Shown: positions 1,455 through 42,490 of the stretch, piece after piece | Layout: every line of letters starts with the position of its first letter | How positions within the stretch are numbered: position 1 is the stretch's first letter | NCBI GenBank assembly: GCA_043718225.1 | Contig: JAYSWD010000022.1 | Coordinates: 327 to 64,326 of the forward strand | Direction: 5' to 3' | Origin: Candidatus Omnitrophota bacterium | GTDB taxonomy: Bacteria > Omnitrophota > Omnitrophia > Omnitrophales > Aquincolibacteriaceae | DNA length: 64,000 bases | Notes under the pieces: generated by a model | Databases searched by the model: none | What the model saw: only the letters and a program-made list of their open reading frames with translations | Told to the model about the DNA's origin: nothing | Program-made: the position numbers and the translations under genes

Positions 1455-1816
1455 TCAAAGATATTCCAATCATGCTTTTTGACGGCGACTGCGGGTTTTG
1501 CCGCAGATGGATTGAGAAGTGGCGGAAGGCAACCGCGCCGCGCGTGGCGTATGAGCCTTATCAGAAAGAACTGATGAATTATCCGCAGTTAAGCGAAGCG
1601 CAATGCCGCGAAGCGGTTCAATTGATCATGCCGGATGGAACAGTTTTATCCGGCGCCAAAGCGGTGTTAAAAGCGCTTCAAATCGGCGGAAAAGACGAAG
1701 GTTTATTCTGGAGCTATGAGCATGTCCCTCTTTTTGCGCCCGCAGCGGAATGGTGCTATCGACTTGTGGCGCATAACCGCACTTTCTTTTCGAATTTATT
1801 GCCGCCGAAATCTTGA
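1451..1816 (+). CDS. DCC-family (DUF393) thiol-disulfide oxidoreductase
   Basis: N-terminal FDGDCGFCRRW (DGxCxxC) motif and ~120 aa size. 4-nt ATGA overlap with the upstream LMF-like gene. Confidence 0.75.
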   Translation: MIKDIPIMLFDGDCGFCRRWIEKWRKATAPRVAYEPYQKELMNYPQLSEAQCREAVQLIMPDGTVLSGAKAVLKALQIGGKDEGLFWSYEHVPLFAPAAEWCYRLVAHNRTFFSNLLPPKS

Positions 1817-1861
1817 ACGAAACATTGCCGACAAAAATATTTTTAGCGAAACTTCGCGCAT
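1812..1861 (+). repeat. Left copy of a ~50-nt direct repeat flanking the giant gene
   Basis: cttgaacgaaacattgccgacaaaaatatttttagcgaaacttcgcgcat matches 24348..24397 at 45/50 positions by my count (offset 22,536 nt). It starts at the DCC gene's stop codon and ends at ATA where the right copy has the ATG of the S9 peptidase. Confidence 0.9.
1813..1841 (+). promoter_or_regulatory. Candidate sigma70-like promoter inside the left repeat (TTGAAC-N17-AATATT)
   Basis: Both hexamers and the spacing are conserved in both repeat copies. The -10 matches consensus at only 4/6. About 290 nt upstream of the giant ORF's start. Confidence 0.3.
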
Positions 1862-2128
1862 AGAAAACGCAACAACAAGAAAAAAACGAATCCATTCATA
1901 AAAGGCGCGGTAGTAGACATGCCGCGGCTGTTGTCCTTTTCGTCCCTCTCAGCCCCCCTGTTAGCTCGTTTTGCATTTGATTTTTTTAATCTAGGCTCAA
2001 TCATAATGCTAGTAATTTCATCTTTTTGACAGTCCGCTTTAGTTTGTCCTCGTAGTTATTTTTTGGGTTATGTGGAAAAATAGCCGACCCTATGTTACTT
2101 TTCATTATCATTTACAAATTTTGAAATT

Positions 2129-2224
2129 ATGAATACAAAAACACCATTTTATAAAGGAATTTCTGCATTTACGGTAGCCGCCGTGTGCTTGACGCAGATT
2201 TTCTTCGAGCAGCCCGCTCTGGCG
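2129..2224 (+). other. Predicted signal peptide of the giant protein
   Basis: MNTKTPFYKGISAFTVAAVCLTQIFFEQPALA|Q has a basic N-region, a hydrophobic core and an A-L-A cleavage-type motif. Confidence 0.6.
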
Positions 2225-11200: not shown

Positions 11201-14200
11201 GACGGCCGGATCAGAAAGGCACGAGAGGATTTAGCCGCTCTTTTCGCAAACGAACGCGCGCAAATTGAACGATTGCGCGCGCAAAGCGCCGCTTCAGCCG
11301 AAGATGCGCAGCAAGCGGCCCAAACCATTTTCAATGCCGCGGCCAATGCGCTTGAACATCTTGGCGGTTCTTTTAGCCGTGGAAAGGCAGACGTTGTGCT
11401 CGCCGTTTTACGTGAAATAAAGATGAAGGTGCTGGCCGGTCATTTGGCAAACGCCGAGCGGGCGGGGCATGAGCTTGATCGTCCCAATTTGCCGCAAATC
11501 ATCGCGATTCAAAATCTTCAAAACCAGCTGGATGCGTTGCTTGAGGGCGGTCAGTCGGCTTTGACTTTATGGAAATTGATCCAACGGATTACTTTGACCG
11601 CGAACAATCTTTTGCGGACGGGAGATCGAACTACTGCCGTACTAAGCGCTGCCGCGTGGTTACGTTTTGAGACATTTAAATTGGAAGCCGACGCAATCAA
11701 CGCACAAGTGCGTAGCCCGACCGCCGCGCAGGTGCTGCCCCATTACATTCAAACCGGGACACAGCTGTTGGTAATTATGCAGCAAGACGCGCAGCGTCTC
11801 GCCGACAATCGGGATTTAGACCAATATGAAGGACTCTTTCGCGGCTTTGCTGCCGCTATTTCGGGCTGGAGCAGTTTTTGGCGTGTTCATCAAATGCGGC
11901 AAATCGTGGTGCAACTTGAGAATGGCCGGACATGGTTGACCGAATTGTTAAACGCTTCGGAGGCTGCTTTCGGAGACCGGCAATTAGCGTCCAATTTCGC
12001 GCAAAGAAGGGATGCACTGCGGGAAAAAATCGAAAACCGTTTGAGAGCGGTAAACCGATGGCTTAAGTTTTTGGCGCTGTTTATGCCAAAAAGAGAAGCG
12101 CAATTCCCAGTTATTTTGAAAAAGCGACCAGTCTCAATTGCCGAAGATATAAATCAAACAATTCCGCAGCCGGCTGAACTAGTAACCCCATTCGTGCCTG
12201 CCGCCGCAGCCGGAAATAAAGATGAATTCATAGCTTCGCCGGCAACACTGGCTGGAGTCATCGGCGATGATGCTCTGCCGGTGGCTTCCTCGCCTGCGCG
12301 GGCATCAGCGCCGGTAGCGAAAAGTTCACCAACTTTACGGCACCCAGATTGGCGCGTGTTGAGCGGAATTGCCGCAGCGGTAGCTGTTGTTGCCGCTGTA
12401 TGGCTGATCCCTTCGCTTCAGCACAGAAGTAAAGATATCAAAGCACCGTCCGCGGTTTTGACGGCAACGTCAGAAACTCAAAATCCGGAAGCAAATGCTA
12501 CAAACGAGAACAATCCCCGTATGGGCATTCGATTCACACAGACAGCACCGCAACCAGCGCAATCACCGGCCGCTGAGCCTGCAGGTTTTGCTGCAAGCAA
12601 TACTGTTGCGTCCAATGCCGCCGATCGACAAACCGGCAGTGCAGTTGCCGGCAAAACCGGTGAGGAAAATTCGTTTAGCATCGGAAGATTTTGGATCAAT
12701 ATTTTTTGGAAACTTGGCGTGCTACTTATTATTGTTGGAGCCGCATCCTTATTAAGATTGAGGCGCGCAAAGCCGCAAACGGCGAAGCGTGTTGTCTCTG
12801 GCACGGCAGCGATTCAACCGCCAGCAGATTCAGGCTTAACTAAAGCCGGAACGATTGCGGAGGCCGCGAATATTTTTCCTCAATTGCCCGTTAAAGCGTC
12901 AAAGACTGCACCTGCGATAGGGGAACCACAGTCGAACCCCGTAGCGAAGAAGAACGCGCCGCTTTTATTGACGGCAGGAGCGGGTGGAATAACGGGCGCG
13001 GTAGAAAATACTTCCGATGCTTGGATGCAAATTTTTGAGCAACAGGTTCTACCGCTTATTCTTTCTGGCAATAATTCCGCGCCTTTACTTTTAATGCCGG
13101 GTGCGTCAAATGAGGCATCGGCAGCATTGGGATTTGCGCTTAATACCGGTTTCCAAGGTTCTTCAACGTTTACACATGGTCATGTCCCGCAAAATAATCC
13201 GCTACAAAACCGCACCGCGGATAATTCAGGAGATATCTTGGCGCAACAAATTGACGCGTTTTTGAGAGCCGGCAGAAAAGAGCCGAGTCAATCAAACGCC
13301 CCTGAAAGTTTTTGGCCGCAAGCCATCCAATTTTTGTCAGGTAAACCAGCCGCTTCGCCATCTGATCCGATGTTTTTAACCGAACGGCCAGCGCCTCTTT
13401 TACTTACAGCGGGTCCTATCGGGAGGATAGCTGAGACAGTTATCACCGTTCAAGCCGAACGGTTTAATCAAAATTGGGAAGAAGTGGAAAAATGGCAGAT
13501 GCGACAGCCAAAACCGGAATCGATTGAAGCAGAAACGGAAACAACCGGTTTTTCCGAAGCGGACATTTTTAACAACATGAAGCCGAGTCGTTTGGCTTGG
13601 CAGAAAAAATCAAAACCGCGGACCAGAATCGTGCCTGGCGAAATGCCCGAACAACCGTTTGAACATATCAGCAGACAGGCACAAACCGGTGTCGGAGGAA
13701 TTTCATCTGCCGCCGCTACCGGTTTAAGCGCAGCTTTAGTTACGGACACGGCTTCGGAACAGGACATAACCGGTGAAACGGCAGTAAGCCCACGTACCCA
13801 TTGGCGGGACAATCATTCTAGGACAATCACGAATGCCGAAAAAAAAGATCATGTTAAATTAACGCATAAAGATTGGCGCGCTGCCAAAAAAGTATTGCGC
13901 CAACCGGTTGTGGGGCTGGTAGACACTGAGCGTCAAATAATCGAGCAAACAATACATCGAGAGCTTGCGGCAGCCGCGAAAGCGCAAGACGCCGTTACGG
14001 CGCAGAAAGCTATCAGCACGGCGCTGGCGTTGGTACCGGCCGTATCCGCTCATTTATGGCCCGTTATTATGATGGAATTAAACCGGGCCGATGCGGCGGT
14101 GTCGAAACGTTTCGGAACACCGTTGATGCTTACTGACCGCGAACGCCAAGTCGCAACGGACGAAAACGTTGCAAGCACGGTAGTTGAACAGCCTGGTTCA

Positions 14201-17200
14201 ATGGATGAGCAATTAAAGGACACAGCGGCAGAGGAAATCAAATTACAGCCGGTCAGAATAGCTGTTTCGGAAGAAGCCGAACCCGCCAAAACGGCGCGGC
14301 CTAAAATTATCCTTACAGGTTCAATTGCAGCGCTGCTTCCGCCGGTAGTCTCTGCTGCAACGGGAAAAAGGCCTAAAAAAGCGCAATTGCGGAAAGGTAA
14401 ATCCACCGCACCTAAAATGCAAACTGCCGGCGCACGCGTAGCAGTGACGGAAATGCCGGGGGTAGACTCAGCGGTGCCGATTATTACAGCCGGTCCTGTA
14501 GCTCCCACGGCAATTATTTTGGAAAGCGATTTATTTACAGCTCAGCCGGCAGACGATGAATCCAACGAGGTCGGTATTTTTGCAGAAATAAAAGCCCAGA
14601 GGCTTATTGCGACAAGAAGATTAATGCTTAATGACCTAAGCGTTTCGCCCGCAGTGCGCGCTCAGGCAGCAACCCAAATTCCTGCCGCCGCCTTTGCCAG
14701 GGATACACTTTTACCCAAACTTTTGGAAAGACTTATTGAGCAATTGCTGCCTGATTCTGGCGAACGTTTGCTGCTTGAGAATAGACAGCGGGAAGCGCGC
14801 GCGCTAGCGGCTGATCCGGCCGAATTAGACGTTCAAAGCGAAGATGCCGTTGCACCTGTCAAAACCAAGCGGCCTAAATTTATTCTCACAGGTTCAATCG
14901 CCGCATTGCTTCCACGGTCCGTGCGCGTTACAACCGACGCGACACCCGCGAGCGAACAGACAGTCGAATTTTTTACAGAAAATTCCGTCTCCGATGCCGT
15001 TCAGCCGGTTGCAGTTACATCTGATCTTGATGTCCAATTACCCCAGGCCGGCGCAACAGCTGCAGAAATTGCGACGGTTGTGCCGCCTTCGGTTTCCAAC
15101 CCGGAATTTATTTTGGCCGGACCCATTGCGGTTCCTTCATTGAAACTATCGGCGCATAATTTTTATTTTGTTCCCGTCGGCTTCTATGATTTGGGAACAA
15201 GATTAGCTGCGGCCGCCACCGGCGGAGTCATTGCCGGAACCGCCGTCGTTATGGAGGAGAAAGGATCTTCAACCGAAAAACCTGCCGATTCAAAAAAGCC
15301 TTTTGTTTTATCGCCTAATGATTTGGAACAAGATTTGTTTACATCGCCGACGAGAGATAATGAATATCAATTTGCTCAATCTGCCGATTTCTTGGGTGCC
15401 TTGGTCCGCAAAGGAATGCCTTCTAATCTTGTGCGGGGGAATTTTAGTGCTGCACCGAATTCGCCGGCGGGAGAGGATGAATCCGCTCAAACCGGTGGAA
15501 CAGACAGAGTGATTGTCTATCCGGACATGCACGCAGCAGCCGCGCAAACAGAAGAATCGCCCGAGACTGCAGGTTTGGATGCTGAACAGGAAGATGGCGG
15601 CAAAGCTGCGGTAAGTCCCGTTCCTGCTGCCGCAGCGCAAAAAGGCCGCGGCCGAAAATGGATTTTGCCCGCAAGCATCGCCGCCGGGCTGACACTGGCC
15701 GCCGGCCTGGCTGTTTGGAGTTTTATTTTACCGGCGCGGGTTCCCACTCTCGCTAAAGTTACTCAATCCACAGAGGAAAGCGATGAAGACAAAAAACTTG
15801 TGGAAATGATTAACGGTCAAATTCCAAAAATTTCAGCTGCTGTTAAAGACTTGCAAGCCAATTTCGTTGAATTGGATACACAAATATCAAAAGGTAAAAA
15901 AACGATAGGCCAAATTGAAAAACTCACGGAACAAGTGCAAGCCGAGCTGGCTCGGCTGGAAAAAATGCCGGACAAAATCAAAACTAACGAATGGAAAGCA
16001 CAGCTGAAGAGCAAGTTTGGCCTTTTAGAGAGGCGTCAAGAAGACCTCACGCAGAATGTTAATGTTTCAGAAACCCAACTGGCAGCGCTAAAGAAACAGC
16101 GTGATGCTTGGAATATACAAATCGAAATGTTCAAAACAATCATCGAAATGAAACCCGGAGACCGGCCAAGGGCTTTACAGCAATTGCAATTTGCTTATCT
16201 CAATTTACAGCGCGCGCGCGATTTTCACGATCGACAGCCCAGGTATTTGCCGGCTACTTTCAGTCCCGAGTCAAACCAGAGTAGCAATTCGCCGAATGAG
16301 AAGTTTGAAAAACTTTTAGGGGAATTTAAAGAATTAAAAATTGCGCTGGGCAAAGCTGAAGAAGTTCGCAAAAAAGCGTTGCAGGACATGCTGGAAAGAA
16401 ATCAGCGGGCCTTAGAGAACCTCGCGCAATCCGGAGAAGCGGCTCAGGGGGCAATTATTGAAACGGAAATATATTTGGCCAGCCTGAAGCAAATCAGTTT
16501 TTCCAAGCCACTAGCATTGTGGACATCTTCTACTACAGTAACGGATCCGGCGGCTCATGAAAAAATAAATATCGCACCTGAAAACCCGGAAGTTAATATC
16601 GCAACTCATCCGCCGGTGCTTGATATGCCGCCGACAAATCTTTCCGAACCTTTAAAGCCGAGCGTAGCGTCCGCGCCTTTGCCCGAAACGACAGCTTTGC
16701 CGGAAATGGGTGGAGAAGAACAATTGATGCTTCAAGCTTTGCCCCCGGCACAGCCGGCATCGACGGCGCCTTTTGCTTCCGGCACAGGAGTTGATTTGCA
16801 TGGGCCAACTAACGTGGATGCTGAACTGGCAAAACCCGCAGTTGCTCTATCAATGCCATCTTCCACGGTTGCGGCTCCGTCCGCCGCGCCGGCTGCTGCC
16901 TTGGAAACCCAATCTGCTTCGCCATCCGCACAAACCGATTCATCGGCCGCAGTCAATTCCGGCGGACAAACTAATACCGGCCGCGGGATACCTGTCGTGC
17001 CGGTTGCCGTGACGATAGCTCCACTAGCTCCATTTTTAATCAGCGGCACGCTTTGGGGGATAATGGGAGCATTGGCAGTTCTGATGCTTGCTTTCAGCGG
17101 ATGGCTTTTATTGCGCTTGCGTCCAAAAACTGTTTCTGCCGTTCCTTCGTCCGTTGCGGCTCCATCCGCCGCGCCGGGGGTAGGCTGGCGCTTTTCTTGG

Positions 17201-20200
17201 TTTAGAAAATCCGCGCCTAAACCGTTACAGCCCGCGCCAACAGCGGTGCCGCCAAAGACGGGAATAGCAGCACCGGGGCCCGCTCGAACAGCGCCTGCAA
17301 CTAAGAAAACCAGTGCGTTGCCGGCAAAACTAAATACTGCACCGCCTGCTTCTGCGGTTCTGCCCGTCAAAAAGGCTAAAACAGGTGCCGATGTGAAAAA
17401 TCCAATTCCGACTCCTACACCGGGAGCTTCGACGACAAATATTGTGTCCCCGCCATCAGCAGCTTCTTTGGGTCCGCCGGAAAGGCAGACTGCCGCAGCG
17501 GCCGGTCATTCAGAGACTTCTCCGCCGCCGGGAAAATCCGCTGATGCAAAAAATACAGATGATTCACCGCCGATACCGGTCGTGCCTTCTGGCGCGAAAG
17601 AAAAAGCCTCTGCTGTACCTGCAATTGCAGTACCCATTCCGGTAGTTTTGCCTGATGTAGCCGCAACGAGTCATGCCGCAGAAGAAAAGCCTGCGAATGC
17701 CGGCACGAATGCTTCGCATCCAGCTGAAACACACGCTTTAAAACCGGCTTCGGCTGATTCAATTTTGTCTCCGGTGCGTTTTAGACTACCCCGGTGGGTT
17801 ACGCCCGTTGCAGCGGCCGCGGGAATTGTTGCCGGATTATTTTTATTACACAAAACGCATCAAGAAAAATCGGGGGCCGGATCCAAAACCGCAATGACAT
17901 TGCCGGCAAAAGATTCCACGCCTGAAACAGAGGTGCAACTTCGCGACGATTCGCTTCCTGCAAATGTGGCCTCACCGGCGCCTGCTGCAACTGGTAATCA
18001 AAACTTGGCGGCAACACCGCAGCCGCCAACCATGGTTTTGGCCGAAGTGAATCTCAATGATTTGACGCTACGACCGGTGCCTGTATCGCCAATAACTTTT
18101 ACTTTCGGTTCAGCACGTCCCACGGCGGATATGACAAATATATTCGCACCCGCGCCTAAAATGTCGCCGTTCGATTTTTCCGAACCTTTTGTACCGGCGG
18201 CGCTAGCTTTGAATTTGCCTGATACAACGAACCTTCATTTGCCGGAAATAAGTTTTGATCATTTAACTCCGTACACTACGCCTTTATCGCCAATGCCCTT
18301 TGCTTTTGATGTGGCACGTCCCGCGGCGGACATGACAAATATATTCGCTTCCGCGCCTGAAATGTTGCCGCTCGACTTCTTCGCACCTTCTGCGACGACT
18401 GCGTTAGCTCTGAATTTGCCTGACACAACAAATTTGAATTTACCGAAAGTTAATTTCGATGATTTGACCTTGCGACCGGTGCCTGTATTGCCAATAACAT
18501 TTACTCTCGGCTTGGCACGTCCCGCTGCGGATATGACAAATATATTCGCTCCCGTGCCTGAAATGTTGCCGCTTGACTTCTTCGCACCTTCTGCGACGAC
18601 TGCGTTAACTCTGAATTTGCCTGACACAACAAATTTGAATTTGCCGAAAGTGAATCTCGATGATTTAAACCCTTTGCTGAAACCAACGGATGCTGGTTTG
18701 CCGGGAGTCGTTTTTCCGTCTGAGACTATGTTGAGCTCGACGCAACCGCAAGCAACACCCGGTGTTGTTCCGGAAACACCGGGTGTTGCAGGTTTAGAAG
18801 TTGCGTCTGCCCTTGTGCTTAATTCACCTACCGTGCCGCAACCTGAAAGCATGATAACGTTAACGGTGCCCGAAATGTCGCGATTTGCTTTTTCTGCCGA
18901 ACGGATTGAATTGGGTCTGACACCCGTGCCTTTGCTCAAGTTAACGGATGCTGGTTTGCCGAGGGAAGTGAATCCTCCTGACAACTTAACGTCGGGCGCT
19001 GCACCGGCTAGTGCTGTAAAAGTGAAACCGCCTTTCAGGGCGACGGTGTCTGTATTGCCGGTCCCAGTTGCGATAAAATTCGCATTAACGCCGCCGGGGC
19101 AAAGGTCCGAAAATTTACCGGCTGCTCCCGATTCCCAAATCACTAGTGCCCAAACAGAAAAAAAGAACGCTTCGCATGCGGCAGTATCGCAGTCACCCCA
19201 GGAAAGGGGGGGCTCTACGGTCGTTGCAACCCCAAAAGAAAGCAATCAGTCCGCGGAAGCAGAAGCAACAAAAGTGCAGAAGCCGGCTGTGACAGTTAAA
19301 GCAGCGGACAAATCCGTAATCGCTGAAAAAGTAAAATCGCCTGCCGGAGGCAAAACAGAAAAATCAAAAACGCAGGGTCAAGCTAAAGCGGGAAAAAACG
19401 CTCAGCCAAAAATAGAAATCAAAAGAGCGCTGCTCACACGTGCTTTGCAAGAAAACAGCCAAGGCTTGGATGTCTTTGCCGCGGAAGCAGCTTTGCAGGC
19501 ATTAAATCCGGCCAACACCCGGCTTATAGGTGAGGCCGATGGTGATTTTGATGGACGTTTGGCACGTGCCTCGGATACTTTCGCGCATAATTGGAATCTT
19601 GAGCATCCGGGGCAACCGCGTTTGATTTTAAACGGCCGCATTGAACCACAAAAGTTTGCCAGGATATGGGAAAGTTTGACGCCGCAGCAAGTGCATGCTT
19701 TGCAAGCAAAAGTTGATAATCAAAATTATGATCATGTAAAAGGCGGCGAAGCAGTGAAACAGGCGCGGGCGGCGCACAATAAAATCGCCAAGACGGAATC
19801 AATGCCCGCAGCCAAAATGATTGCGGCGGTTTCAACGGTTGGGGATATTACGAATACCGGACACGCTGAAGAGATGTTTGCCGCAAGCGGTGATGATACG
19901 AATACTGCGAAAAAATCATTGCAAACGGAACCCGACTCGAAAGAAACGGCAAGCACGCCTTCTGCATCTCAGGTTCCCGCACCGTCTACCGTTGTGAAAA
20001 CTGATCCGGTTTCGCCGCCCGCTGCAGCTTCCGCTGTGGGAGTTCAAAAAGAAGCAACGCCAGCTAAAGTTGCCGCAGGTCCGATTGCACCAAAACCCAC
20101 ATTGACCCAGCCGGTGCAGCATACGCTTCCCAAGGTGGGTGAAAAAGTAATTACGGCGGCAAAACCAGGGGTTTCGCAGCATGTCACCGGAAAAACGGCG

Positions 20201-23200
20201 AAAGCGAGTTCGTCGCCGCAGAAAATTTTACAGGCGCGGCTGACGCGTACTATTAATCCCGGCGATAAAGGACTCGATGTTTATAGCATTCAAGCATTTT
20301 TTTATACGCAAAGCGATTTTTACCGGAACTTAGTGGGTAAGCCGACGGGCAAAGCCGATCAACAGTTCAAGAAGACGGTTCTCACCTGGAAAACAAATTG
20401 GAACCGCACCAATCTTCGTCCCGGCAAAAAACCGCTGGAGATGACTCCTTCTCTTGATCAAGCAACTTACGCGACAATCCGCAGAAGTTTGGATGATACA
20501 CAAGTTTATAAAATGAACCAGCTGTATGCGCGTGAAAATTGGAAAGCGATTCCGGGCGGTATGCATGTTATCCGTGCCTTGAAAAAAAGGAATCAAGAAA
20601 AAGCACATACTGTAAGCTCTGCCGTGAAATTGGCGGCCGATTCAACAGTCGGGGATATTACGAATACCGGAAACGATGAAGTATTGTTTGCCGCAAGCGA
20701 CGACGATGTGAACTCTCAGGAAGAGACCGTGCAAACGGCGACCGATTTGGATGAGCCAGTATTCATAGCTCAAAATACCGTTTCAGTCGAGTTAACACCG
20801 GCTGCTGATTTGCCTGTTGCGCCGGAAGCGCCGATTGTTATGGATGCACCTGGCCATTCAACGGCAGCTGCGGCGCTATCTGCGCCTGCCCTTGCGTTTA
20901 ATTTACAGACCGTGCCGCAATCTGAAAGCACGGTCAAGTTACCGGTGGCCAAAAAGCCGCAGTTGGCTTTTTCTGCCGCGCCAGTAGAACCGGGCCTGTC
21001 GCCAACGGATGTTGGTTTGCCAAAGGGAGTGAATAATCCACCTGACAACTCAGCGTCGGGCGCTGCACCGTCAATGCCATCAGCCCCGGCGACACAAGAA
21101 GTTCCCACGCCTGCGCCAGCGATTGACAGCACGCCTTCGACACCTGAAATGCCCGCTGCTGCGCCATCAGCGACAATTACGCCGTCACCTAATTTTGCAC
21201 CGCTAGTTGTAAGCACGCCTTCTGTGCCTAAAACACCGGCGGTTGTGACGTCTATCACGCCAACAGCACCGGCACCGGCAGCTAAAAGTCTTGCTCCCGT
21301 ACTTCAACCGCCGGCAAACGAAATGTCGCCAACAAATACTCCGGCCGGCACGGCAGTCGATTCCGGCATCGGGCAATTCCAAACTCTTTTGCCGGAAGCG
21401 TCACGGGATCAAGCGGTTTCCGGAAATTTAACGGAGGCGCATCCCATTCCCAGAAATATGCCGCAAGTTCTCGATTCCGACCACGAGACCACGCCACATG
21501 AACTTGCGGCGCCGACCGCAAATCAGCCGCGGCCGGATATCGCGGCGGCCTATGTGCCGAAAGAAGAAAAAGCGCATGTTCAGGCAGCGACCGCGATGAC
21601 CAATGCAATTAACGAGTTAATTGCTAAAGGAGAACTCCCCTTGATGGCAAGCAATGGTTCGGGGGGGCAGCGCATGTCGCCGTCTGCCCGTCGGCACCTT
21701 GGCGACTTGCTGAAAGATTCACGGCGGGTTAAGGGCGATAAAAAATCTCCGAGTAATAAACCTAAAGCAGATAGTAAATCTGCAGATAATAAAAAAGCGA
21801 ATAATAAATCTAAGGCAAAAACGGTCAAAGTAGAAAAAAAGACAACGATTGTCACAAAGAATAAAGTTGGAAAGAATAAAACCGCAAATAATGGCATCAA
21901 AGATTATTCCCTGGTTACTCCCAACATGCGCGGCGCTCTTTTGGAGCATGTCCCGTTTCCGCCACAGTATTTCAAGCGCACAGTGGGCGGCACCCGCATT
22001 AATGCATCGCGCGACGGCGGAAAACGGGTTCATAACGGCCGTGACGGAGTTATGCCCATCGGCGTCCCGCTGTTTGCATCATTAAAAAATCCGTGGATAC
22101 GCTATGCGGGAACCATGGGTGGATACGGAAATATAGTTATCATTCGTGGTTGGGGTTTGGATGGTAAATTACGTGATTTTCCTCGTGGGCATGTCGGTAA
22201 AATGAAATTTTTAACGAATAATCAATTCGTTCCTTTTGCCCGGGCTCAACATGTCAAATCCAGTACGGTCGTAGCCTATTCTGGAAGATCAGGTATTAAA
22301 AATGACGCACCGCATACGCATGACGAATCATGGCTCGTAAAAGGCGGAGTGAACGGCGAAGGATGGCGTCTCGGATCAACCGGGCGTGATTTCCGCCTAG
22401 AGAACATTGATTGGATTTATGAAAATGCCGTGGATTGGAATGGCAAAGGTGGGTATGCTTCCAATAGTTTAGAAGCAAAAAAAGAAACAATAGGCCGCGG
22501 TTTTAGAAATGCGGGAATAGTTGGAATAGCTGCCGCCGGATTTATTGCCACGGCTCCGGCCGAAAAAAATGCTGCGAAAAATGTCAATTCGCGGGCGCCG
22601 GCGACGGATATTCTCGATCAAGCGCTGGCAGCTGCCGGTCTATCGATCCCAAGTTCTTCCCAAGCAGCGCCTGCCCGTGCGGCAAAAATTATTGCAGGTT
22701 TGAATGTGCGCGATTTGACGGCACATATTCCTTTTATTGCGCCTGTCCCCGATGCGCGTGGTTTCGGGATTAATCCCGCAAGCCCGCCCGCATTTCATCC
22801 CGCCAACTCTAAAGAAGAAGTGTCTTATAAAATTGCGCTCAAAGTAAATGCCGGATTGGCCATGCAAGCATTGCAAGATGCCTTGCGACAGAACAATTTA
22901 ACTTGGCCGAGACCGGGAACTCCTGAACGCAAGGCTCTTGTAAAAATATTCCTTCAAATGCCGCAGGAGGCGAAACCGGTTAGCCAGCAAAGCTCATTCG
23001 CGCAAGCCGATGCCGAGCAACGCCGGCGAGTGGCAACCCAAATTTTCTCCGCTTTGAAGTCCGCAAGCTCTTCACAGGCCTCAAGCACAAATTTGTGGCC
23101 CGCGTTAGCAAGGCTTAACAATTTGCCCGAAACCGCTGTTTTCAAGCCGCACAAAGCCGGTCTTTCCAAGACAAGTGTTTTCAAAGGTAAAAAGACTATC

Positions 23201-24283
23201 GCTGGTAAAAAGAATCTTGCAAAAAAGCTATCGGAAAAAAAACACGGCAAGCCAATCAAGGAGAATATTCGATCAAAACCCAAGGTAGCTTCTTCACTCA
23301 CGGCACGTCGTTCAGAATTCCGTGCCGCACCGGCATTGATAGATGAAATCATTTCTGGATCGGGGGACATTGTCAGGCGTGTTTATTTAGGCGGATTGAT
23401 TTTACTCGAGCATCTTAAAAAATTGAATGCCCGCGCCGATGCGCCTGCGTTGCTCCGTGCATTGCGGCTGAATTTAGGACTGGCGCTTCCCGAAGCTTTG
23501 GCTTCCGTCGATCGCAAGAATATTGTCGGTGATACGTACCGCGATAAAAATGCGCAGCCGCGTATTTCGTCGGCCGCTCTCGACCGGCTGATAAAAAGGG
23601 CAGAATTTTCTGGAATTTCGGGCGGACAATTTATATTTGATGACCGTCATACCGAGCAGTTTAAGAAAAATCCCGCGGCGTTGTTTAATCTGCTGGCCGT
23701 GCTCCGGCATTTGCAAAGTTTGGGCAGGGTTAAGCCCGCCGTGACTTTTGTTGGGAACCGCCGCGAGTTTTTTGATTCTTTGCGGAAAATTTTTCAAAAC
23801 CGGAACGGATTAAGCGCCGTTGAGAAACAGGAAATGGCAGGTCTTTTGCCGGAACCCGGCGCCGAAGCCGCGACGCCTTTCGGAAATTTGATCGCTTTCA
23901 TTGATGAAAAGGATTTGACCGCGTATTTGGATGCCGCCGCTAAAACCGAAGGCGTTGTTTTCTTGCATAGTTTGAATTCCGCGCCACCGATACCGGGAAT
24001 CGCGAATTTTTATCTGGAACCGGGCGCGCATTCATCAGCCGATTTAGCCGTGTTGCTAAGCGGCGTGGCCGTGGGCGGTCTTGCCGCTGCGGCGCATATC
24101 CGCGGCCTGAAAGAGCTCGAAAAAATACGCAAAGAACTGACGGGCCCCGTATTGGACAACCTTTTTCCGCGCGCCGCAATCGAATTCAAAAGCGGCGGGT
24201 TCCGTTTCGTTAATTTTGAAGATTACTTGTTGGCTCTTTTATTGGAAAATAGCGCTGCTGGCTTTTTTGAGCGCAGCGTTTAA
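2129..24283 (+). CDS. Giant (7,384 aa) secreted/membrane-threaded multi-domain protein with peptidoglycan-binding-like modules and an M23 metallopeptidase domain
   Basis: Stop-free frame of 22,155 nt. The N-terminus looks like a signal peptide. Domain-level evidence is listed in the sub-features below. All opposite-strand ORFs inside it are short shadows. Confidence 0.85.
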   Translation: MNTKTPFYKGISAFTVAAVCLTQIFFEQPALAQMPETPRALKAAAAFQIEIPPELGRIETITSGTGPVFIHIQEAHGDYESQKKIEALLHYLKKQYGVKLVLVEGSAAQLHPEILNFFPADPAATNKVLDALAREAWAKGTESFLVSDKETAAYGIETFGSYLKNARQFQTILGRRNETADFIDALQSRMQQLASVLLNKNLRSFLRRRQSYDEKELPLAEWVEALKGEARKTLKIDLTDPLYQLDWPMFLRLSKLQEFETALDFKSLPAERRRFLKSIRRFCPGLIYQKIEALLSLPLSRNNLSDPETGMLIESMVSYLPANFNYAAYPNLNRFIGHLIMQSELKGALLAAEIEKLAAQTAEALTENPVEKEFLDLAADYRAIRKIFDLELSTEDYENFSSAEARERLLPSHLHQRLSSFEKTNRGESLAAMDAMFTQIMEFYAGAKNRDGQMAGHILERMRQTGETKAVILTGGFHSKGLGDFLRAHNANYALISPVIEGLAHRDEYFKTFLETSFDSAGHSAVMRPWLADYKNFPWSPVFDQARAAAVNRFKPENTILQTRAGVHEPDLTEKETRHRTAPALPESFYDFAPGGPIAFVARSEMRFLNNGIFISAGIFFSRLARPFVEFIKWYGACLRETPSLSQVADEEWIRWWKEAPTEEVARKMEQTLRKGEKLFSRFKTRIDSLGNRGTRGYERRREDAQTVLFDEILPVLRHQDFILDILKNRRAQNDGWGATIAAFDSLFQEARKKYYGYESLIGRSLPLPQRLAGQLPVSVTHDLKVALEEARQLFSKLKKFGTWFKWLQKSDKEFFIGKIVPAFLDLKTIAELLEERGLQHGGLTGAIAEFSPLYEKARARTGVDFSQAYAASNKKYEELYAREKAKFGVPTTLQEFIPRRQEKSPWLEKIEAALSRIPVKSPPEDTSVPPKSPPVETPKSDGGGNYYLIRILQRAIDQDMEAARKLDGREEASVTKETLFAQIKKNLEKLNEALQGLRVEAAQNSARASTQTVSQRVQQVYRNNQRAYLLESSDAARLVLKLERARIEYQNRLDALPSRAISAKKALLATIEEIVKMKNIASQLRAYEAQNSAPDTNGVLRLAAEINDRRSQRSNPGKAARRRQKYLSERTRIEALAAPPIIGAIPDKQLLQLAREHEANRLKELSNELERIRRQQKLARDLEQGANMSQDSAGIKYQDTLALRRSYAEDWARRPYTSEPSWRFVDGWAQKDGTEESPPRQSEDEDSGSYAGKSYWQRQYGERDRAIEDYLNRAQMTFEALQKRRGLLNHRRIVAQNTREKIEGKLRQAEFSLRLVSVRRNLAAAFLDDGDVDSAAHEWKAADAALRHMGGQQTELSIEVERHQRVMDTRQKLLRAGLEWAEKDAGELTAIGRPLFSGEEREPAMAGALARLNRMLPGDEKKETKMRRLFNKLLRLSHAAQPLTQSKREISKLLKALKHKQSLKALADHQSYLAALLAQTSELDFSLYAEAKELAEKLRKFADRTAAWDEAIPESVGPAYDLGQKLAAFTIKLRQAFEKWIEEESPHSEWMDGQVRAMNGRVHDAREIIDAVTDGERTLREKIEMAGSLQSSVMSAALEVQTLRSQWTAIANGQAAEIGKKDGSQAAHALLQKAETALRIKLEKARQAAAGFDQLGVPKNERVLAALRQIKKDNETAERILASARVQVINQEAELLLARIPEPAALADLYHKNPAAVLARLEEADAAIAFLALLEPQARVADQNLIAGYQNITYVPSDVLCNVDRLHNDAQQRRAQGQIVLDLLKTATRLHVRAVMITHLPAGVASVPEIKSLEKLRGGLESIGSELAERGMINHPAVAGAIKAVQTGIAARQAFLRARAEKEKEWQDVRKHAALLYKNMLDNRRQVHGVAAIVAVLDSAPGSLRGMFAQSKDALVRLRGLALAAHRLNGRLIKLEMTDETALAGILDEVRQAADPADRQIQRARRAVELLTQAKTVSEQAAVLSESMPSPLAVAALFNRQGEKAFAVVRRMVQEQESQFEQLQHRLDNLQQKIEAEMFKKENLVDEALQREQKKTAAAKDRLVAAGREVEAAIDVISSITQAAVRTEILFRQLRTLNPKRIDGFFKQGGFKLVADQMRQREQNFKRDYRKALQEHHIAEALQDARRWGILEIPALAAPFKLIDAAPARFAAFVSPLLDRAARRQTASDLLDEARRYKQTVLALTEQEKIRDEYLQQGGSAGAHSLVQEARDILTDQIKTRAQRAREALAPDADLQPEVAREFEQIINSANQAIEDAGNQISKSEADSRQAAQEAATKTKNLRLQITAQLGRAGDLFAEIDRAFLKPGGSLNAWELITRARVAAERMSVHLTRIRVEASRLPEKTTTLQSLMQAEKNRRAIRYLLQAAAKHLLELEEKSRFAALTAALQASVRQQVIERIFAEGGQQFGFLKRIYLESGSSQARELLEKAQALAGPNRANELPRGSTGFRADFTVAAEEENRFPKVKRQGHEAAIQENWQVASVLLQQAAREVERLKQQSRAESVQAASSSGKLHDEIEAALGDPTQPLIHIRDIYLKQGAAAARNTVRELEIKAHGFIPLGVTAVTAARRLPEQTVLDNRRKIANDRLAIRQQIREARRMIAVMENQSVQVSARTEQAAEYLAKRIQSDLKRVISHYLDETKGAAVAESDIAAAEKSAENFNRLLGTAQMAWEQLQYAYGEIFVWFDLQKIKQHQAAVRQALTDARQALENTKNASRVIAFLADQDASRLYALSIPSFGDKSDQFAHVRRIFFSEGSAAAHEHVRRIQIASEAFDGYVTDSEREKNRLPEQLIIDQHNRVAAYRTRVAAQSRIAFNLIESFEATVEQQAAAAGVESAAALRRLNQTLITVQDIIDQQGPLAQAQNAVKQAREQLAIILDQQQRIVDLAGIFNSERVLAANGQAAQNAINANSAIANAEGRIAKEIWSIHLQSSQDMAAAEQIAGEIKQEVEGQSVAVYFSQGSAAAGGRVAEGEKRAADIELLESNAARRLRRLDDDTTRTYDGRIRKAREDLAALFANERAQIERLRAQSAASAEDAQQAAQTIFNAAANALEHLGGSFSRGKADVVLAVLREIKMKVLAGHLANAERAGHELDRPNLPQIIAIQNLQNQLDALLEGGQSALTLWKLIQRITLTANNLLRTGDRTTAVLSAAAWLRFETFKLEADAINAQVRSPTAAQVLPHYIQTGTQLLVIMQQDAQRLADNRDLDQYEGLFRGFAAAISGWSSFWRVHQMRQIVVQLENGRTWLTELLNASEAAFGDRQLASNFAQRRDALREKIENRLRAVNRWLKFLALFMPKREAQFPVILKKRPVSIAEDINQTIPQPAELVTPFVPAAAAGNKDEFIASPATLAGVIGDDALPVASSPARASAPVAKSSPTLRHPDWRVLSGIAAAVAVVAAVWLIPSLQHRSKDIKAPSAVLTATSETQNPEANATNENNPRMGIRFTQTAPQPAQSPAAEPAGFAASNTVASNAADRQTGSAVAGKTGEENSFSIGRFWINIFWKLGVLLIIVGAASLLRLRRAKPQTAKRVVSGTAAIQPPADSGLTKAGTIAEAANIFPQLPVKASKTAPAIGEPQSNPVAKKNAPLLLTAGAGGITGAVENTSDAWMQIFEQQVLPLILSGNNSAPLLLMPGASNEASAALGFALNTGFQGSSTFTHGHVPQNNPLQNRTADNSGDILAQQIDAFLRAGRKEPSQSNAPESFWPQAIQFLSGKPAASPSDPMFLTERPAPLLLTAGPIGRIAETVITVQAERFNQNWEEVEKWQMRQPKPESIEAETETTGFSEADIFNNMKPSRLAWQKKSKPRTRIVPGEMPEQPFEHISRQAQTGVGGISSAAATGLSAALVTDTASEQDITGETAVSPRTHWRDNHSRTITNAEKKDHVKLTHKDWRAAKKVLRQPVVGLVDTERQIIEQTIHRELAAAAKAQDAVTAQKAISTALALVPAVSAHLWPVIMMELNRADAAVSKRFGTPLMLTDRERQVATDENVASTVVEQPGSMDEQLKDTAAEEIKLQPVRIAVSEEAEPAKTARPKIILTGSIAALLPPVVSAATGKRPKKAQLRKGKSTAPKMQTAGARVAVTEMPGVDSAVPIITAGPVAPTAIILESDLFTAQPADDESNEVGIFAEIKAQRLIATRRLMLNDLSVSPAVRAQAATQIPAAAFARDTLLPKLLERLIEQLLPDSGERLLLENRQREARALAADPAELDVQSEDAVAPVKTKRPKFILTGSIAALLPRSVRVTTDATPASEQTVEFFTENSVSDAVQPVAVTSDLDVQLPQAGATAAEIATVVPPSVSNPEFILAGPIAVPSLKLSAHNFYFVPVGFYDLGTRLAAAATGGVIAGTAVVMEEKGSSTEKPADSKKPFVLSPNDLEQDLFTSPTRDNEYQFAQSADFLGALVRKGMPSNLVRGNFSAAPNSPAGEDESAQTGGTDRVIVYPDMHAAAAQTEESPETAGLDAEQEDGGKAAVSPVPAAAAQKGRGRKWILPASIAAGLTLAAGLAVWSFILPARVPTLAKVTQSTEESDEDKKLVEMINGQIPKISAAVKDLQANFVELDTQISKGKKTIGQIEKLTEQVQAELARLEKMPDKIKTNEWKAQLKSKFGLLERRQEDLTQNVNVSETQLAALKKQRDAWNIQIEMFKTIIEMKPGDRPRALQQLQFAYLNLQRARDFHDRQPRYLPATFSPESNQSSNSPNEKFEKLLGEFKELKIALGKAEEVRKKALQDMLERNQRALENLAQSGEAAQGAIIETEIYLASLKQISFSKPLALWTSSTTVTDPAAHEKINIAPENPEVNIATHPPVLDMPPTNLSEPLKPSVASAPLPETTALPEMGGEEQLMLQALPPAQPASTAPFASGTGVDLHGPTNVDAELAKPAVALSMPSSTVAAPSAAPAAALETQSASPSAQTDSSAAVNSGGQTNTGRGIPVVPVAVTIAPLAPFLISGTLWGIMGALAVLMLAFSGWLLLRLRPKTVSAVPSSVAAPSAAPGVGWRFSWFRKSAPKPLQPAPTAVPPKTGIAAPGPARTAPATKKTSALPAKLNTAPPASAVLPVKKAKTGADVKNPIPTPTPGASTTNIVSPPSAASLGPPERQTAAAAGHSETSPPPGKSADAKNTDDSPPIPVVPSGAKEKASAVPAIAVPIPVVLPDVAATSHAAEEKPANAGTNASHPAETHALKPASADSILSPVRFRLPRWVTPVAAAAGIVAGLFLLHKTHQEKSGAGSKTAMTLPAKDSTPETEVQLRDDSLPANVASPAPAATGNQNLAATPQPPTMVLAEVNLNDLTLRPVPVSPITFTFGSARPTADMTNIFAPAPKMSPFDFSEPFVPAALALNLPDTTNLHLPEISFDHLTPYTTPLSPMPFAFDVARPAADMTNIFASAPEMLPLDFFAPSATTALALNLPDTTNLNLPKVNFDDLTLRPVPVLPITFTLGLARPAADMTNIFAPVPEMLPLDFFAPSATTALTLNLPDTTNLNLPKVNLDDLNPLLKPTDAGLPGVVFPSETMLSSTQPQATPGVVPETPGVAGLEVASALVLNSPTVPQPESMITLTVPEMSRFAFSAERIELGLTPVPLLKLTDAGLPREVNPPDNLTSGAAPASAVKVKPPFRATVSVLPVPVAIKFALTPPGQRSENLPAAPDSQITSAQTEKKNASHAAVSQSPQERGGSTVVATPKESNQSAEAEATKVQKPAVTVKAADKSVIAEKVKSPAGGKTEKSKTQGQAKAGKNAQPKIEIKRALLTRALQENSQGLDVFAAEAALQALNPANTRLIGEADGDFDGRLARASDTFAHNWNLEHPGQPRLILNGRIEPQKFARIWESLTPQQVHALQAKVDNQNYDHVKGGEAVKQARAAHNKIAKTESMPAAKMIAAVSTVGDITNTGHAEEMFAASGDDTNTAKKSLQTEPDSKETASTPSASQVPAPSTVVKTDPVSPPAAASAVGVQKEATPAKVAAGPIAPKPTLTQPVQHTLPKVGEKVITAAKPGVSQHVTGKTAKASSSPQKILQARLTRTINPGDKGLDVYSIQAFFYTQSDFYRNLVGKPTGKADQQFKKTVLTWKTNWNRTNLRPGKKPLEMTPSLDQATYATIRRSLDDTQVYKMNQLYARENWKAIPGGMHVIRALKKRNQEKAHTVSSAVKLAADSTVGDITNTGNDEVLFAASDDDVNSQEETVQTATDLDEPVFIAQNTVSVELTPAADLPVAPEAPIVMDAPGHSTAAAALSAPALAFNLQTVPQSESTVKLPVAKKPQLAFSAAPVEPGLSPTDVGLPKGVNNPPDNSASGAAPSMPSAPATQEVPTPAPAIDSTPSTPEMPAAAPSATITPSPNFAPLVVSTPSVPKTPAVVTSITPTAPAPAAKSLAPVLQPPANEMSPTNTPAGTAVDSGIGQFQTLLPEASRDQAVSGNLTEAHPIPRNMPQVLDSDHETTPHELAAPTANQPRPDIAAAYVPKEEKAHVQAATAMTNAINELIAKGELPLMASNGSGGQRMSPSARRHLGDLLKDSRRVKGDKKSPSNKPKADSKSADNKKANNKSKAKTVKVEKKTTIVTKNKVGKNKTANNGIKDYSLVTPNMRGALLEHVPFPPQYFKRTVGGTRINASRDGGKRVHNGRDGVMPIGVPLFASLKNPWIRYAGTMGGYGNIVIIRGWGLDGKLRDFPRGHVGKMKFLTNNQFVPFARAQHVKSSTVVAYSGRSGIKNDAPHTHDESWLVKGGVNGEGWRLGSTGRDFRLENIDWIYENAVDWNGKGGYASNSLEAKKETIGRGFRNAGIVGIAAAGFIATAPAEKNAAKNVNSRAPATDILDQALAAAGLSIPSSSQAAPARAAKIIAGLNVRDLTAHIPFIAPVPDARGFGINPASPPAFHPANSKEEVSYKIALKVNAGLAMQALQDALRQNNLTWPRPGTPERKALVKIFLQMPQEAKPVSQQSSFAQADAEQRRRVATQIFSALKSASSSQASSTNLWPALARLNNLPETAVFKPHKAGLSKTSVFKGKKTIAGKKNLAKKLSEKKHGKPIKENIRSKPKVASSLTARRSEFRAAPALIDEIISGSGDIVRRVYLGGLILLEHLKKLNARADAPALLRALRLNLGLALPEALASVDRKNIVGDTYRDKNAQPRISSAALDRLIKRAEFSGISGGQFIFDDRHTEQFKKNPAALFNLLAVLRHLQSLGRVKPAVTFVGNRREFFDSLRKIFQNRNGLSAVEKQEMAGLLPEPGAEAATPFGNLIAFIDEKDLTAYLDAAAKTEGVVFLHSLNSAPPIPGIANFYLEPGAHSSADLAVLLSGVAVGGLAAAAHIRGLKELEKIRKELTGPVLDNLFPRAAIEFKSGGFRFVNFEDYLLALLLENSAAGFFERSV
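2300..3700 (+). other. N-terminal globular region with a Tiki/ChaN/TraB-like motif pattern (tentative)
   Basis: PVFIHIQEAHGDYESQKKIEALLHYLKKQYGVKLVLVEG near the start and AVILTGGFHSKGL near the end. This resembles the GExH ... E ... GxxH layout of that superfamily. Assigned from memory only, with no alignment run. Confidence 0.25.
4161..4715 (+). repeat. Two divergent ~80-90-aa internal repeats
   Basis: KLFSRFK...FDEILPVLRHQDFILDILKNRRAQNDGWGATIAAFDSLFQEARKKY versus QLFSKLK...FIGKIVPAFLDLKTIAELLEERGLQHGGLTGAIAEFSPLYEKARART. Confidence 0.5.
7850..11410 (+). repeat. Array of at least 11 divergent ~110-aa helical repeats (spectrin-like periodicity)
   Basis: The anchor motif (two hydrophobics, x3, G, x3, A) recurs at nt 7850 MFAQSKDA, 8120 LFNRQGEKA, 8444 FFKQGGFKL, 8771 YLQQGGSAG, 9101 FLKPGGSLN, 9434 YLESGSSQA, 9797 YLKQGAAAA, 10103 YLDETKGAA, 10448 FFSEGSAAA, 10751 IIDQQGPLA, 11066 YFSQGSAAA and 11369 SFSRGKADV. 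Spacing is 270-363 nt. Alternate units also share an RLPE(Q/K) motif. Confidence 0.65.
12356..12418 (+). other. Internal transmembrane helix A of the giant protein
   Basis: VLSGIAAAVAVVAAVWLIPSL, flanked by R and HRSK (about aa 3410-3430). Confidence 0.6.
12689..12754 (+). other. Internal transmembrane helix B
   Basis: FWINIFWKLGVLLIIVGAASLL followed by RLRRAK (about aa 3521-3542). Confidence 0.6.
12956..15150 (+). repeat. Seven dispersed copies of a short P-(hydrophobic)2-3-L-T/M-(A)-G-P/S-I-A motif
   Basis: APLLLTAGAGGITG (12956), APLLLMPGASNE (13072), APLLLTAGPIGRIA (13387), RPKIILTGSIAALLP (14288), VPIITAGPVAPTA (14465), RPKFILTGSIAALLP (14862), PEFILAGPIAVPS (15098). Copies 4 and 6 share about 20 aa. 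Confidence 0.55.
15659..15730 (+). other. Internal transmembrane helix C
   Basis: WILPASIAAGLTLAAGLAVWSFIL, preceded by KGRGRK (about aa 4511-4534). Confidence 0.6.
15790..16495 (+). other. Coiled-coil segment
   Basis: K/E/Q/L-rich heptad-like sequence, for example KISAAVKDLQANFVELDTQISKGKKTIGQIEKLTEQVQAELARLEK and FEKLLGEFKELKIALGKAEEVRKKALQDMLERNQRALENL. Confidence 0.55.
16988..17115 (+). other. 42-residue hydrophobic block (one long or two hairpin transmembrane helices)
   Basis: IPVVPVAVTIAPLAPFLISGTLWGIMGALAVLMLAFSGWLLL followed by RLRPK. Confidence 0.55.
17795..17848 (+). other. Internal transmembrane helix F
   Basis: WVTPVAAAAGIVAGLFLL, preceded by RLPR and followed by HKTHQEK. Confidence 0.5.
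18047..18680 (+). repeat. In-frame tandem repeat, 3.3 copies of 201 nt (67 aa)
   Basis: Units start at 18047, 18248 and 18449, with a partial unit from 18650. The consensus is VNxDDLTLRPVPVxPITFTxGxARPAADMTNIFAPxPEMLPLDFFAPSATTALxLNLPDTTNLNLPK. Units 2 and 3 differ at 7 of 134 nt in their 3' two-thirds by my count. Confidence 0.9.
19424..19700 (+). other. Peptidoglycan-binding-domain-like module A
   Basis: LTRALQENSQGLDVFAAEAALQALNPANTRLIGEADGDFDGRLARASDTFAHNWNL... fits the G-x-D/V ... LQ ... (A)DG-x-F(G/D) ... pattern of PG_binding_1-type domains. Judged by eye. Confidence 0.45.
20224..20490 (+). other. Peptidoglycan-binding-domain-like module B (paralogue of A)
   Basis: LQARLTRTINPGDKGLDVYSIQAFFYTQSDFYRNLVGKPTGKADQQFKKTVLTWKTNWN. 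Both modules are followed ~130 aa later by a near-identical STVGDITNTG(H/N)xE..FAAS.DD block (19832.. and 20638..). Confidence 0.4.
21723..21900 (+). other. Lys/Asn-rich low-complexity tract
   Basis: RRVKGDKKSPSNKPKADSKSADNKKANNKSKAKTVKVEKKTTIVTKNKVGKNKTANNG, immediately N-terminal of the M23 core. Confidence 0.8.
21903..22340 (+). other. Peptidase M23 (LytM/lysostaphin-type) catalytic domain
   Basis: HNGRD (HxxxD, 22031..22045), GGYGNIVIIRG, and GRSGIKNDAPHTHDE (HxH at 22313..22321), in canonical order and spacing. Confidence 0.75.

Positions 24284-40813: not shown

Positions 40814-42490
<1,677 letters not shown>

Follow-up and report, generated by a model that had tools for sequence, protein, structure and literature searches.

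The giant gene and its layout

The window considered here, a stretch of 64,000 nucleotides of contig JAYSWD010000022.1, carries on its plus strand a giant open reading frame (ORF) whose product of 7,384 amino acids (aa) belongs, to judge from its sequence, to a family of giant Omnitrophota proteins in which a Tiki/ChaN-like N-terminal domain is conserved and the middle varies (Table 1). The Omnitrophota, uncultured bacteria of ultra-small size, are thought to live as predators or episymbionts, and most of their giant genes lack annotation. Our subject is a short segment in the C-terminal part of this protein, which appears to encode a highly diverged zinc endopeptidase of the M23 (LytM/lysostaphin) type with an active site that looks catalytically competent, an explanation that we favour, as a whole, with modest confidence. 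A previous reading made from the letters alone (hereafter, the sequence-only reading) had described there a cell-wall module composed of two peptidoglycan-binding-like domains, a poly-lysine tract and an apparently active M23 peptidase.

The identical protein is recorded once in NCBI. A Pfam scan of its C-terminal half (3,684 aa) gave no match, and that of its N-terminal half two chance-level matches (E ~0.06). The peptidase, which had been taken to be terminal, is not: about 650 residues (aa 6744-7384) follow it and include a second Lys-rich tract, an RSEFR motif and a conserved C-terminal domain.

Table 1. Features of the giant ORF, with residue numbers in the protein and nucleotide positions in the window.
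Feature	Residues (aa)	Window position	Strand	Basis
Giant ORF, 7,384 aa, containing all features below		2129..24283	+	
Sec-type signal-peptide-like N-terminus (K-rich n-region, hydrophobic core, ALA-Q)	1-32	2129..2224	+	sequence reading, hydropathy
Conserved N-terminal domain	37-524	2237..3700	+	tblastn, alignment
RSEMR motif, just past the N-terminal domain	603-607	3935..3949	+	
Transmembrane candidate H1	3410-3432	12356..12424	+	Kyte-Doolittle scan
Transmembrane candidate H2, followed by LRRAKPQTAKR	3521-3543	12689..12757	+	hydropathy
Transmembrane candidate H5, preceded by QKGRGRK	4512-4536	15662..15736	+	hydropathy
Hydrophobic stretch H6, 45 aa, one or two spans	4953-4997	16985..17119	+	hydropathy
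H7, last confident transmembrane candidate	5223-5242	17795..17854	+	hydropathy
201-bp (67-aa) repeat, 3.1 tandem copies, in a Pro/Ala/Ser/Thr-rich region		18041..18666	+	
Paralogous module 1	5760-5944	19406..19960	+	BLASTP
Paralogous module 2	6030-6214	20216..20770	+	BLASTP
Pro/Ala/Ser/Thr-rich linker (P+A+S+T up to 67% per 100 aa)	6215-6530	20771..21718	+	
Lys-rich tract	6535-6593	21731..21907	+	
Divergent M23 metallopeptidase core (candidate)	6631-6743	22019..22357	+	Pfam, PDB, tblastn, hhalign, PHROGs
Presumed catalytic codon H6635	6635	22031	+	
Presumed catalytic codon D6639	6639	22043	+	
Presumed catalytic codon H6688	6688	22190	+	
Presumed catalytic codon H6729	6729	22313	+	
Presumed catalytic codon H6731	6731	22319	+	
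Second Lys-rich tract	7003-7058	23135..23302	+	
RSEFR motif, directly before the C-terminal domain	7061-7065	23309..23323	+	
Conserved C-terminal domain (~320 aa)	7066-7384	23324..24280	+	

A divergent M23 core, its predicted active site and its probable location

Homology of the segment to M23 peptidases goes beyond chance, as judged from several sequence libraries. PF01551 was the sole Pfam match of a 267-aa piece comprising the core (E 0.0071, 17.0 bits, profile positions 2-86 of 96), and a phmmer search of PDB sequences returned three matches, all of them M23 (3slu, 6muk and 5kqb), aligned at the HxxxD/GGYGN and HxH blocks, with the HTH of aa 6729-6731 placed on the HLH of 5kqb. Similarly, tblastn of the region against 50,697 phage records (2.3 Gb) yielded 59 matches (best E 4e-4); the annotated ones among the matches listed are mostly named peptidase, endolysin or endopeptidase, and all four that were retrieved score 64-113 bits on PF01551. 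Weak matches in PHROGs were again to the families "peptidase" and "metallo-endopeptidase". In an alignment with the four Pfam-certified phage domains, H6635, D6639, H6688, H6729 and H6731 occupy invariant columns, as do P6643, G6645, G6665, G6667 and E6733, and hhalign joined the region to the profile of these four sequences with 97.75% probability over 101 columns.

From what is known of LytM and lysostaphin, we take the first five residues to be three zinc ligands (H6635, D6639 and H6731) and two catalytic histidines (H6688 and H6729), H6688 being presumably the equivalent of LytM His260. The motif positions given by the sequence-only reading were exact (HNGRD at nucleotide 22031, aa 6635; GGYGN at 22118, aa 6664; HTH(DE) at 22313, aa 6729), and its description of the peptidase as apparently active is borne out at the level of sequence by the register of all five catalytic residues and by the hhalign match. 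EnvC and NlpD, which activate amidases, have lost their zinc ligands, and EnvC joins its LytM domain with long coiled coils. The domain of the window shares the M23/LytM fold family with these activators but differs from them because all five catalytic residues align; with its full set of zinc ligands and catalytic histidines, it is not a degenerate activator of the EnvC/NlpD type, as had been argued. It probably cuts cell-wall peptides.

When 1.84 billion representative proteins were searched in full with HMMER, no relative of the M23 region appeared at E<=1e-3; word-indexed homologue searches with the M23 and C-terminal region, with both modules and with the M23 core alone returned no matches, and a scan of genome contigs with the M23 and C-terminal region found nothing.

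The place of the peptidase in the cell was approached through hydropathy, which gives the five confident membrane segments of Table 1 (H1, H2, H5, H6 and H7) and several weak ones besides. The modules, the Lys-rich tracts and the M23 core all lie downstream of H7, and there is no confident hydrophobic span from aa 5243 to the C-terminus. Under the positive-inside rule, the Lys and Arg residues counted on either side of H2, H5 and H7 are consistent with H7 running from inside to outside, and P0002, a homologue of the C-terminal domain, bears the twin-arginine (Tat) signal SRREVLK. Linkers rich in Pro, Ala, Ser and Thr, together with a Lys tract, are typical of envelope proteins. Because of the positive-inside pattern, the Tat signal on the homologue and this Pro/Ala/Ser/Thr- and Lys-rich composition, we consider it fairly probable that aa 5243-7384 (~2,140 residues) reside outside the cytoplasm. 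Envelope-related genes are present among the neighbours (DsbD, redoxin, PEGA, GT2 and DUF748).

Two repeated elements were also noticed in the protein. The 67-aa repeats (…LNLPDTTNLNLPKVNFDDLTLRPVPV…ARPAADMTNIFAP…) come directly after the last membrane segment, with 79% matches among the 201-bp units. A hydrophobic motif, P-x-[LIF]-[IL]-L-[TAM]-[AGP]-G, occurs in six copies over aa 3611-4332 (window 12959-15125), for example as APLLLTAG and RPKIILTGSIAALLP.

Several points weigh against an active, wall-directed M23 enzyme. The PF01551 score of 17.0 bits is below the gathering threshold of 28.7; the four phage sequences used with hhalign were picked for their similarity to the query, their M23 status being independent of that choice; the single-sequence AlphaFold2 model of the core has a predicted local distance difference test (pLDDT) score of 28 and provides no fold evidence; and selective conservation of the region cannot be shown, since there is no orthologue among the 1.84 billion proteins. 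M23 enzymes can also cleave substrates other than peptidoglycan, as LasA does. As for the location, the topology was derived from hydropathy and the positive-inside rule only, a span count that starts from the signal peptide and passes through the five spans leaves the C-terminal region in the cytoplasm, and relatives hold typically cytoplasmic enzymes at the same "cargo" position. The span count would be reconciled with an outside location if H6 were a hairpin or if the weak segment at aa 609-629 were a span.

The sub-threshold Pfam score, the want of orthologues in which purifying selection could be seen and the pLDDT of 28 would all suit a resemblance that is due to chance or to decay, the motifs being coincidental or the domain an inactive regulator of the LytM type like EnvC or NlpD. 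We hold this to be highly improbable, given that independent libraries (Pfam, PDB, phage genomes by tblastn, and PHROGs) converge on M23, that the hhalign probability is high and that five catalytic residues absent from EnvC and NlpD stand in register. A cytoplasmic or otherwise non-wall role, in which the segment after H7 faces the cytoplasm and the M23 domain either cuts some other substrate or survives as a structural relic, would agree with the span count that begins at a cleaved signal peptide and takes in H1, H2, H5, H6 (counted once) and H7, with the cytoplasmic type of the relatives' cargo (triosephosphate isomerase, hexokinase, glutamate dehydrogenase, adenylate kinase and receiver (REC) domains) and with the membrane-anchored cytoplasmic domains predicted for most long Omnitrophota proteins (10.64898/2026.06.07.730766). 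Such a role is nonetheless distinctly unlikely in our view: by the positive-inside rule, H2, H5 and H7 point to an outside location, the homologue P0002 carries a Tat signal, the M23 catalytic set is fully kept, the linkers and Lys tract are envelope-like, and nearly all M23 peptidases known so far work outside the cytoplasm.

Upstream modules, lysine tracts and the possible substrate

The two modules that lie ~2 kb upstream of the peptidase are truly paralogous, as the sequence-only reading had claimed (33% identity over 179 aa, BLASTP E 3e-27), and both, of ~180 aa, are predicted to be helical. Their likeness to PG_binding_1 (PF01471; e.g., the N-terminus of the phiKZ endolysin KZ144) was not confirmed by the searches. 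Module 1 has G-x-D-V, LQ and DG-x-F in that order, its PG_binding_1-like part being the N-terminal ~55 aa, but module 2 has GLDV, IQ and TGKAD and thus lacks DG-x-F; moreover, the modules are much longer than the ~60-70 aa of the known domain and give no signal at the level of HMMER. Indeed, PF01471 matched neither of them in Pfam even at E<=10, and nothing relevant to peptidoglycan binding was returned for them from PDB, PHROGs or phage tblastn.

A more sensitive comparison used a profile of eight real phage domains, namely the KZ144 N-terminal sequence (a query 100% identical to records of phiKZ-like phages) and seven diverse phage domains retrieved with it. Against this profile, the modules score 3.4 and 0.5 bits with HMMER. 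With hhalign, a profile of the two modules reaches 55.9% probability (score 27.1, 51 columns) in the same register as had been proposed, and none of 300 column shuffles attains 27.1 (9.8 +/- 2.1, maximum 18.1). Taken as single sequences, the modules obtain hhalign scores of 16.9 and 14.3, versus 22.2 elsewhere in the protein. An AlphaFold2 model of the module, built on the two-sequence alignment, is all-helical with a pLDDT of 41, and Foldseek gave no match at E<=0.001 for this low-confidence model; a metagenome scan with the module alignment found nothing. That the modules are PG_binding_1 domains is possible on this sequence evidence, if somewhat doubtful.

The higher score found elsewhere belongs to an unrelated helical stretch, NLLRTGDRTTAVLSAAAWLRFETFKLEADAI, at aa 3160-3190 (window 11606-11698), which exceeds both modules against PG_binding_1 with 10.6 bits in HMMER and 22.2 in hhalign; this is probably chance and calibrates the weakness of the module signal. 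The best-conserved element of the modules is the decapeptide STVGDITNTG, identical at the C-terminal ends of both (window 19832-19861 and 20642-20671). Its DNA is identical at 28 of 30 positions between the modules, including 8 of 10 third positions, and this identity may stem from gene conversion or from functional constraint on the site.

A Lys tract of 59 aa does lie directly before the peptidase, but its Lys content had been overstated at ~40%: it counts 19 Lys (32%), and its densest 50 residues hold 18 (36%). In a scan of the whole protein, only aa 6527-6594 and aa 7003-7058 reach >=30% Lys in 30-residue windows. The second of these tracts directly precedes RSEFR and the C-terminal domain, mirroring the tract before M23. 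Each paralogous module is also preceded by a milder Lys enrichment, of 13-14% over the 100 aa that start at aa 5701 and at aa 6001.

Put together, these elements suggest how the enzyme might work. The M23 domain, tied to the inner membrane by flexible linkers, would cleave peptide bonds in the cross-links of peptidoglycan; the basic tract, and possibly both modules, would hold it on the wall, and ~1,000 residues of flexible linker would give it reach. Peptidoglycan is present in the source organism, as an alanine racemase gene (alr) lies within the window and Omnitrophota have a complete peptidoglycan synthesis (10.64898/2026.06.07.730766). The cell's own sacculus, locally remodelled around a huge envelope protein, is the leading candidate for the substrate, though not a majority one, the wall of a host or of prey a weaker candidate, and what is left of our estimate goes to other substrates. 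Action on the own sacculus is at least as likely as action on the wall of another cell, towards which the sequence-only reading had leaned. If the source is indeed a predator or an episymbiont, delivery against the wall of another cell is plausible, and would need a passage through the outer membrane; delivery at a distance to such a wall or to a sheath is a reasonable idea because of the likely Omnitrophota origin of the gene and because of the literature that links the giant proteins of Omnitrophota to predatory or episymbiotic lifestyles (10.1101/2023.11.21.568195, 10.64898/2026.06.07.730766).

Family relatives, a recurrent pentapeptide and known systems

The N-terminal domain recurs at 20 loci of GTDB genomes (25-45% identity, tblastn E down to 2e-138), 13 of them labelled Candidatus Omnitrophota or Omnitrophica and seven belonging to metagenome-assembled genomes labelled "uncultured bacterium". 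Alignment reveals as its invariants IHIQxAH, EG, two Glu, an Arg and TGGFH. Its weak Pfam matches are to PF04187, DUF5694 and Erythro_esteras, of the Tiki/ChaN/erythromycin-esterase superfamily; PF04187 is weakly matched by 5 of 15 members (best E 5e-4), and all matches to the Tiki superfamily are below threshold. On these grounds, the domain is probably Tiki/TraB/ChaN-superfamily-like. The Tiki superfamily includes proteases (Tiki, TraB/PrgY).

The C-terminal domain is more restricted. HMMER found only five other proteins with it among the 1.84 billion, and it is the only part of the searched region that has relatives in this collection; it has no matching Pfam family, and a metagenome scan with its alignment found nothing. 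P0002, of 416 aa, is one of the five, and so is P0003 (2,924 aa), which in addition has the N-terminal domain of the window protein, with 33% identity. When ten segments of the giant were compared by phmmer with all ORFs of the 20 related loci, only the N-terminal domain was matched, and no relatives of the M23 core, the modules or the C-terminal domain were found within 10 kb at these loci, of which L004, L006, L010-L012, L014, L016 and L018 have ORFs that extend past the 10-kb flank. The cell-wall module is thus unique to the protein of the window as far as the collections searched are concerned.

The variable middle of the relatives is occupied by complete enzymes, including triosephosphate isomerase, hexokinase, glutamate dehydrogenase, adenylate kinase, UDP-glucose dehydrogenase, URO-D and starch synthase, and relatives also carry PAS-histidine kinase and REC domains, GT1, histidine phosphatase and APH. 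The sole recognisable enzyme match in the middle of the window protein is the sub-threshold M23. At L001, L006, L009, L014, L015 and L020, full-length and normally cytoplasmic enzymes stand in one ORF behind a signal-peptide-like start; the cargo of these loci also includes a Glu/Leu dehydrogenase and a PAS-histidine kinase-receiver unit, and the triosephosphate isomerase found in the relatives' giant ORFs scores 253 bits. At L007, L010, L011, L012, L014, L015 and L018, a paralogue of the N-terminal domain (~720-780 aa) lies upstream on the opposite strand, divergent from the giant ORF.

The terminal domains are bordered by a pentapeptide, RSE[LMFIV]R, that is strikingly frequent in the family: 57 copies were observed versus 0.40 expected from composition in 59,104 aa of family ORFs, an enrichment of ~140-fold, and P0003 holds seven more. 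The window protein has exactly two copies, at aa 603 and aa 7061, on the inner borders of its conserved terminal domains. The flanks of the motif are unconserved. Its Ser is written with every one of the six codons available and its Arg with many, so that selection acts on the peptide. A reading of the motif as a Shine-Dalgarno sequence (GGAG) with an NTG internal start was discarded, Ser being encoded by TCN in 48 of the 57 copies and the fourth codon being often a non-start codon.

In relatives, RSE[LMFIV]R typically lies 2-30 aa outside complete enzymes (hexokinase, adenylate kinase, REC, URO-D, starch synthase and APH). For instance, the hexokinase of L006 (aa 1120-1578) has motifs at 1101 and 1587, the adenylate kinase of the same locus (aa 3163-3339) at 3132 and 3424, and the starch synthase of L014 (aa 2537-2965) at 2524 and 3054, and the receiver domains of P0003 and L010 begin two residues past a motif. 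The motif thus brackets whole enzymes in relatives, which suggests a processing similar to that of polyproteins; from its distribution, RSE[LMFIV]R looks like polyprotein punctuation, or else like a sorting or docking signal.

Applied to the window protein, this could mean that cleavage at RSE[LMFIV]R, by the N-terminal domain or by some other protease, leaves M23 to act in a processed product and not at the tip of an intact tether. The products would here be the N-terminal domain, a huge middle piece (aa ~608-7060) with M23, and the C-terminal domain. Such processing is compatible with an active wall M23 and competes only with delivery by a long tether. The excess of the motif with its peptide-level signal in codon usage, its short distance to enzyme borders in relatives, its place at the inner edges of the terminal domains and the weak matches of the N-terminal domain to Pfam families of a superfamily that has proteases all speak for it. 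We nevertheless regard it as somewhat unlikely: cleavage is a prediction from sequence, the Tiki-superfamily matches are all below threshold, no RSE[LMFIV]R adjoins the M23 domain itself, and the motif could instead be a site of docking, sorting or modification. It is also undescribed in the two reports on Omnitrophota giants (10.64898/2026.06.07.730766, 10.1101/2023.11.21.568195), and a literature search for it gave unrelated software names only. A broader proposal, which we judge unlikely, is that these genes represent an undescribed class of Omnitrophota polyproteins, composed of a secreted Tiki/TraB/ChaN-like head and independent modules, in which RSE[LMFIV]R would mark sites of processing or sorting and the M23 domain would be a released or positioned wall-cutting cargo, possibly for host attack.

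The surroundings of the giant gene comprise groEL, alr, acsA, hemL and an S9 peptidase gene, and neither tRNA genes nor an obvious mobile-element context turned up in the window. Two full-length groEL paralogues adjoin each other on the minus strand (window 38707-40341 and 40847-42490; 850 and 880 bits on GroEL models). Genes for a PEGA-domain protein and a GT2 glycosyltransferase lie downstream of the giant gene (window 27167-30252), and a PEGA and GT2 pair is also found directly upstream of the related giant ORF of L006 (6533-9670; GT2 678 bits), so that this pair may be a conserved association with giant genes.

M23 peptidases and giant Omnitrophota proteins were known already; what is new is an orphan M23 domain with an intact site in a Pfam-dark giant with a Tiki-like head. 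If our reading is true, this would be a concrete and assayable peptidoglycan-cutting activity within an Omnitrophota giant, contained in an expressible piece of ~200 residues, and would bear on whether such giants attack bacterial walls and on the debate on prey range. The domain also exemplifies how far an M23 sequence can drift with its catalytic set kept, which is useful for annotating other Pfam-dark giants. The side observation of RSE[LMFIV]R may matter more; it would turn the question of whether giants are processed into a direct one for proteomics.

Among described giants, an affiliation with the Archaeovorin/dockerin type (West-Roberts et al. 2023) was rejected: neither half of the protein has a Pfam match to SecA-DEAD, C39, S8 or dockerin, and its 7,384 aa compare with >30,000. 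Giant genes of Omnitrophota have been implicated in cell-wall degradation (10.1101/2023.11.21.568195), and a "multi-enzyme metabolic cluster" class with a topology of signal peptide and transmembrane segments is described among their long proteins (10.64898/2026.06.07.730766). The family of the window is similar to the latter class by its signal peptide, its membrane spans, its sequence-unique middle and its enzyme-bearing relatives (starch synthase, GT1, REC and hexokinase), whereas the window protein itself, with 7,384 aa, is below the 10-kAA (thousand amino acids) cut-off of that catalogue. M23 and the conserved N-terminal domain are mentioned in neither report (10.64898/2026.06.07.730766, 10.1101/2023.11.21.568195).

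The domain agrees with M23 enzymes of the LytM/lysostaphin type (PF01551) in its HxxxD and HxH motifs, additional catalytic His and GGYGN strand, all in the same order and spacing. It is very diverged, and departs from them by insertions (RGWGLDGKLRDFPRG and TNNQFVPFA), by HTHDE in place of HLHFE and by its situation at residue ~6,630 of a multi-pass protein of 7,384 aa instead of in a small secreted enzyme. The closest sequences that were found are phage M23 lysins, with 28-33% identity over 110-147 aa (best E 4e-4), namely Rhodococcus phage Tonitrus gp51, Arthrobacter phage Sue2 endolysin, Phormidium phage Pf-WMP4 gp33 and Microcystis phage Ma-LMM01 gp095. The gene of the window differs from these in being chromosomal and bacterial, the similarity is confined to the M23 core, and no other phage-like feature accompanies it. 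Some phage M23 domains, such as that of Pf-WMP4 gp33, sit in large structural proteins that bring the peptidase to the wall of another cell, and these provide the nearest functional analogy to a distant delivery.

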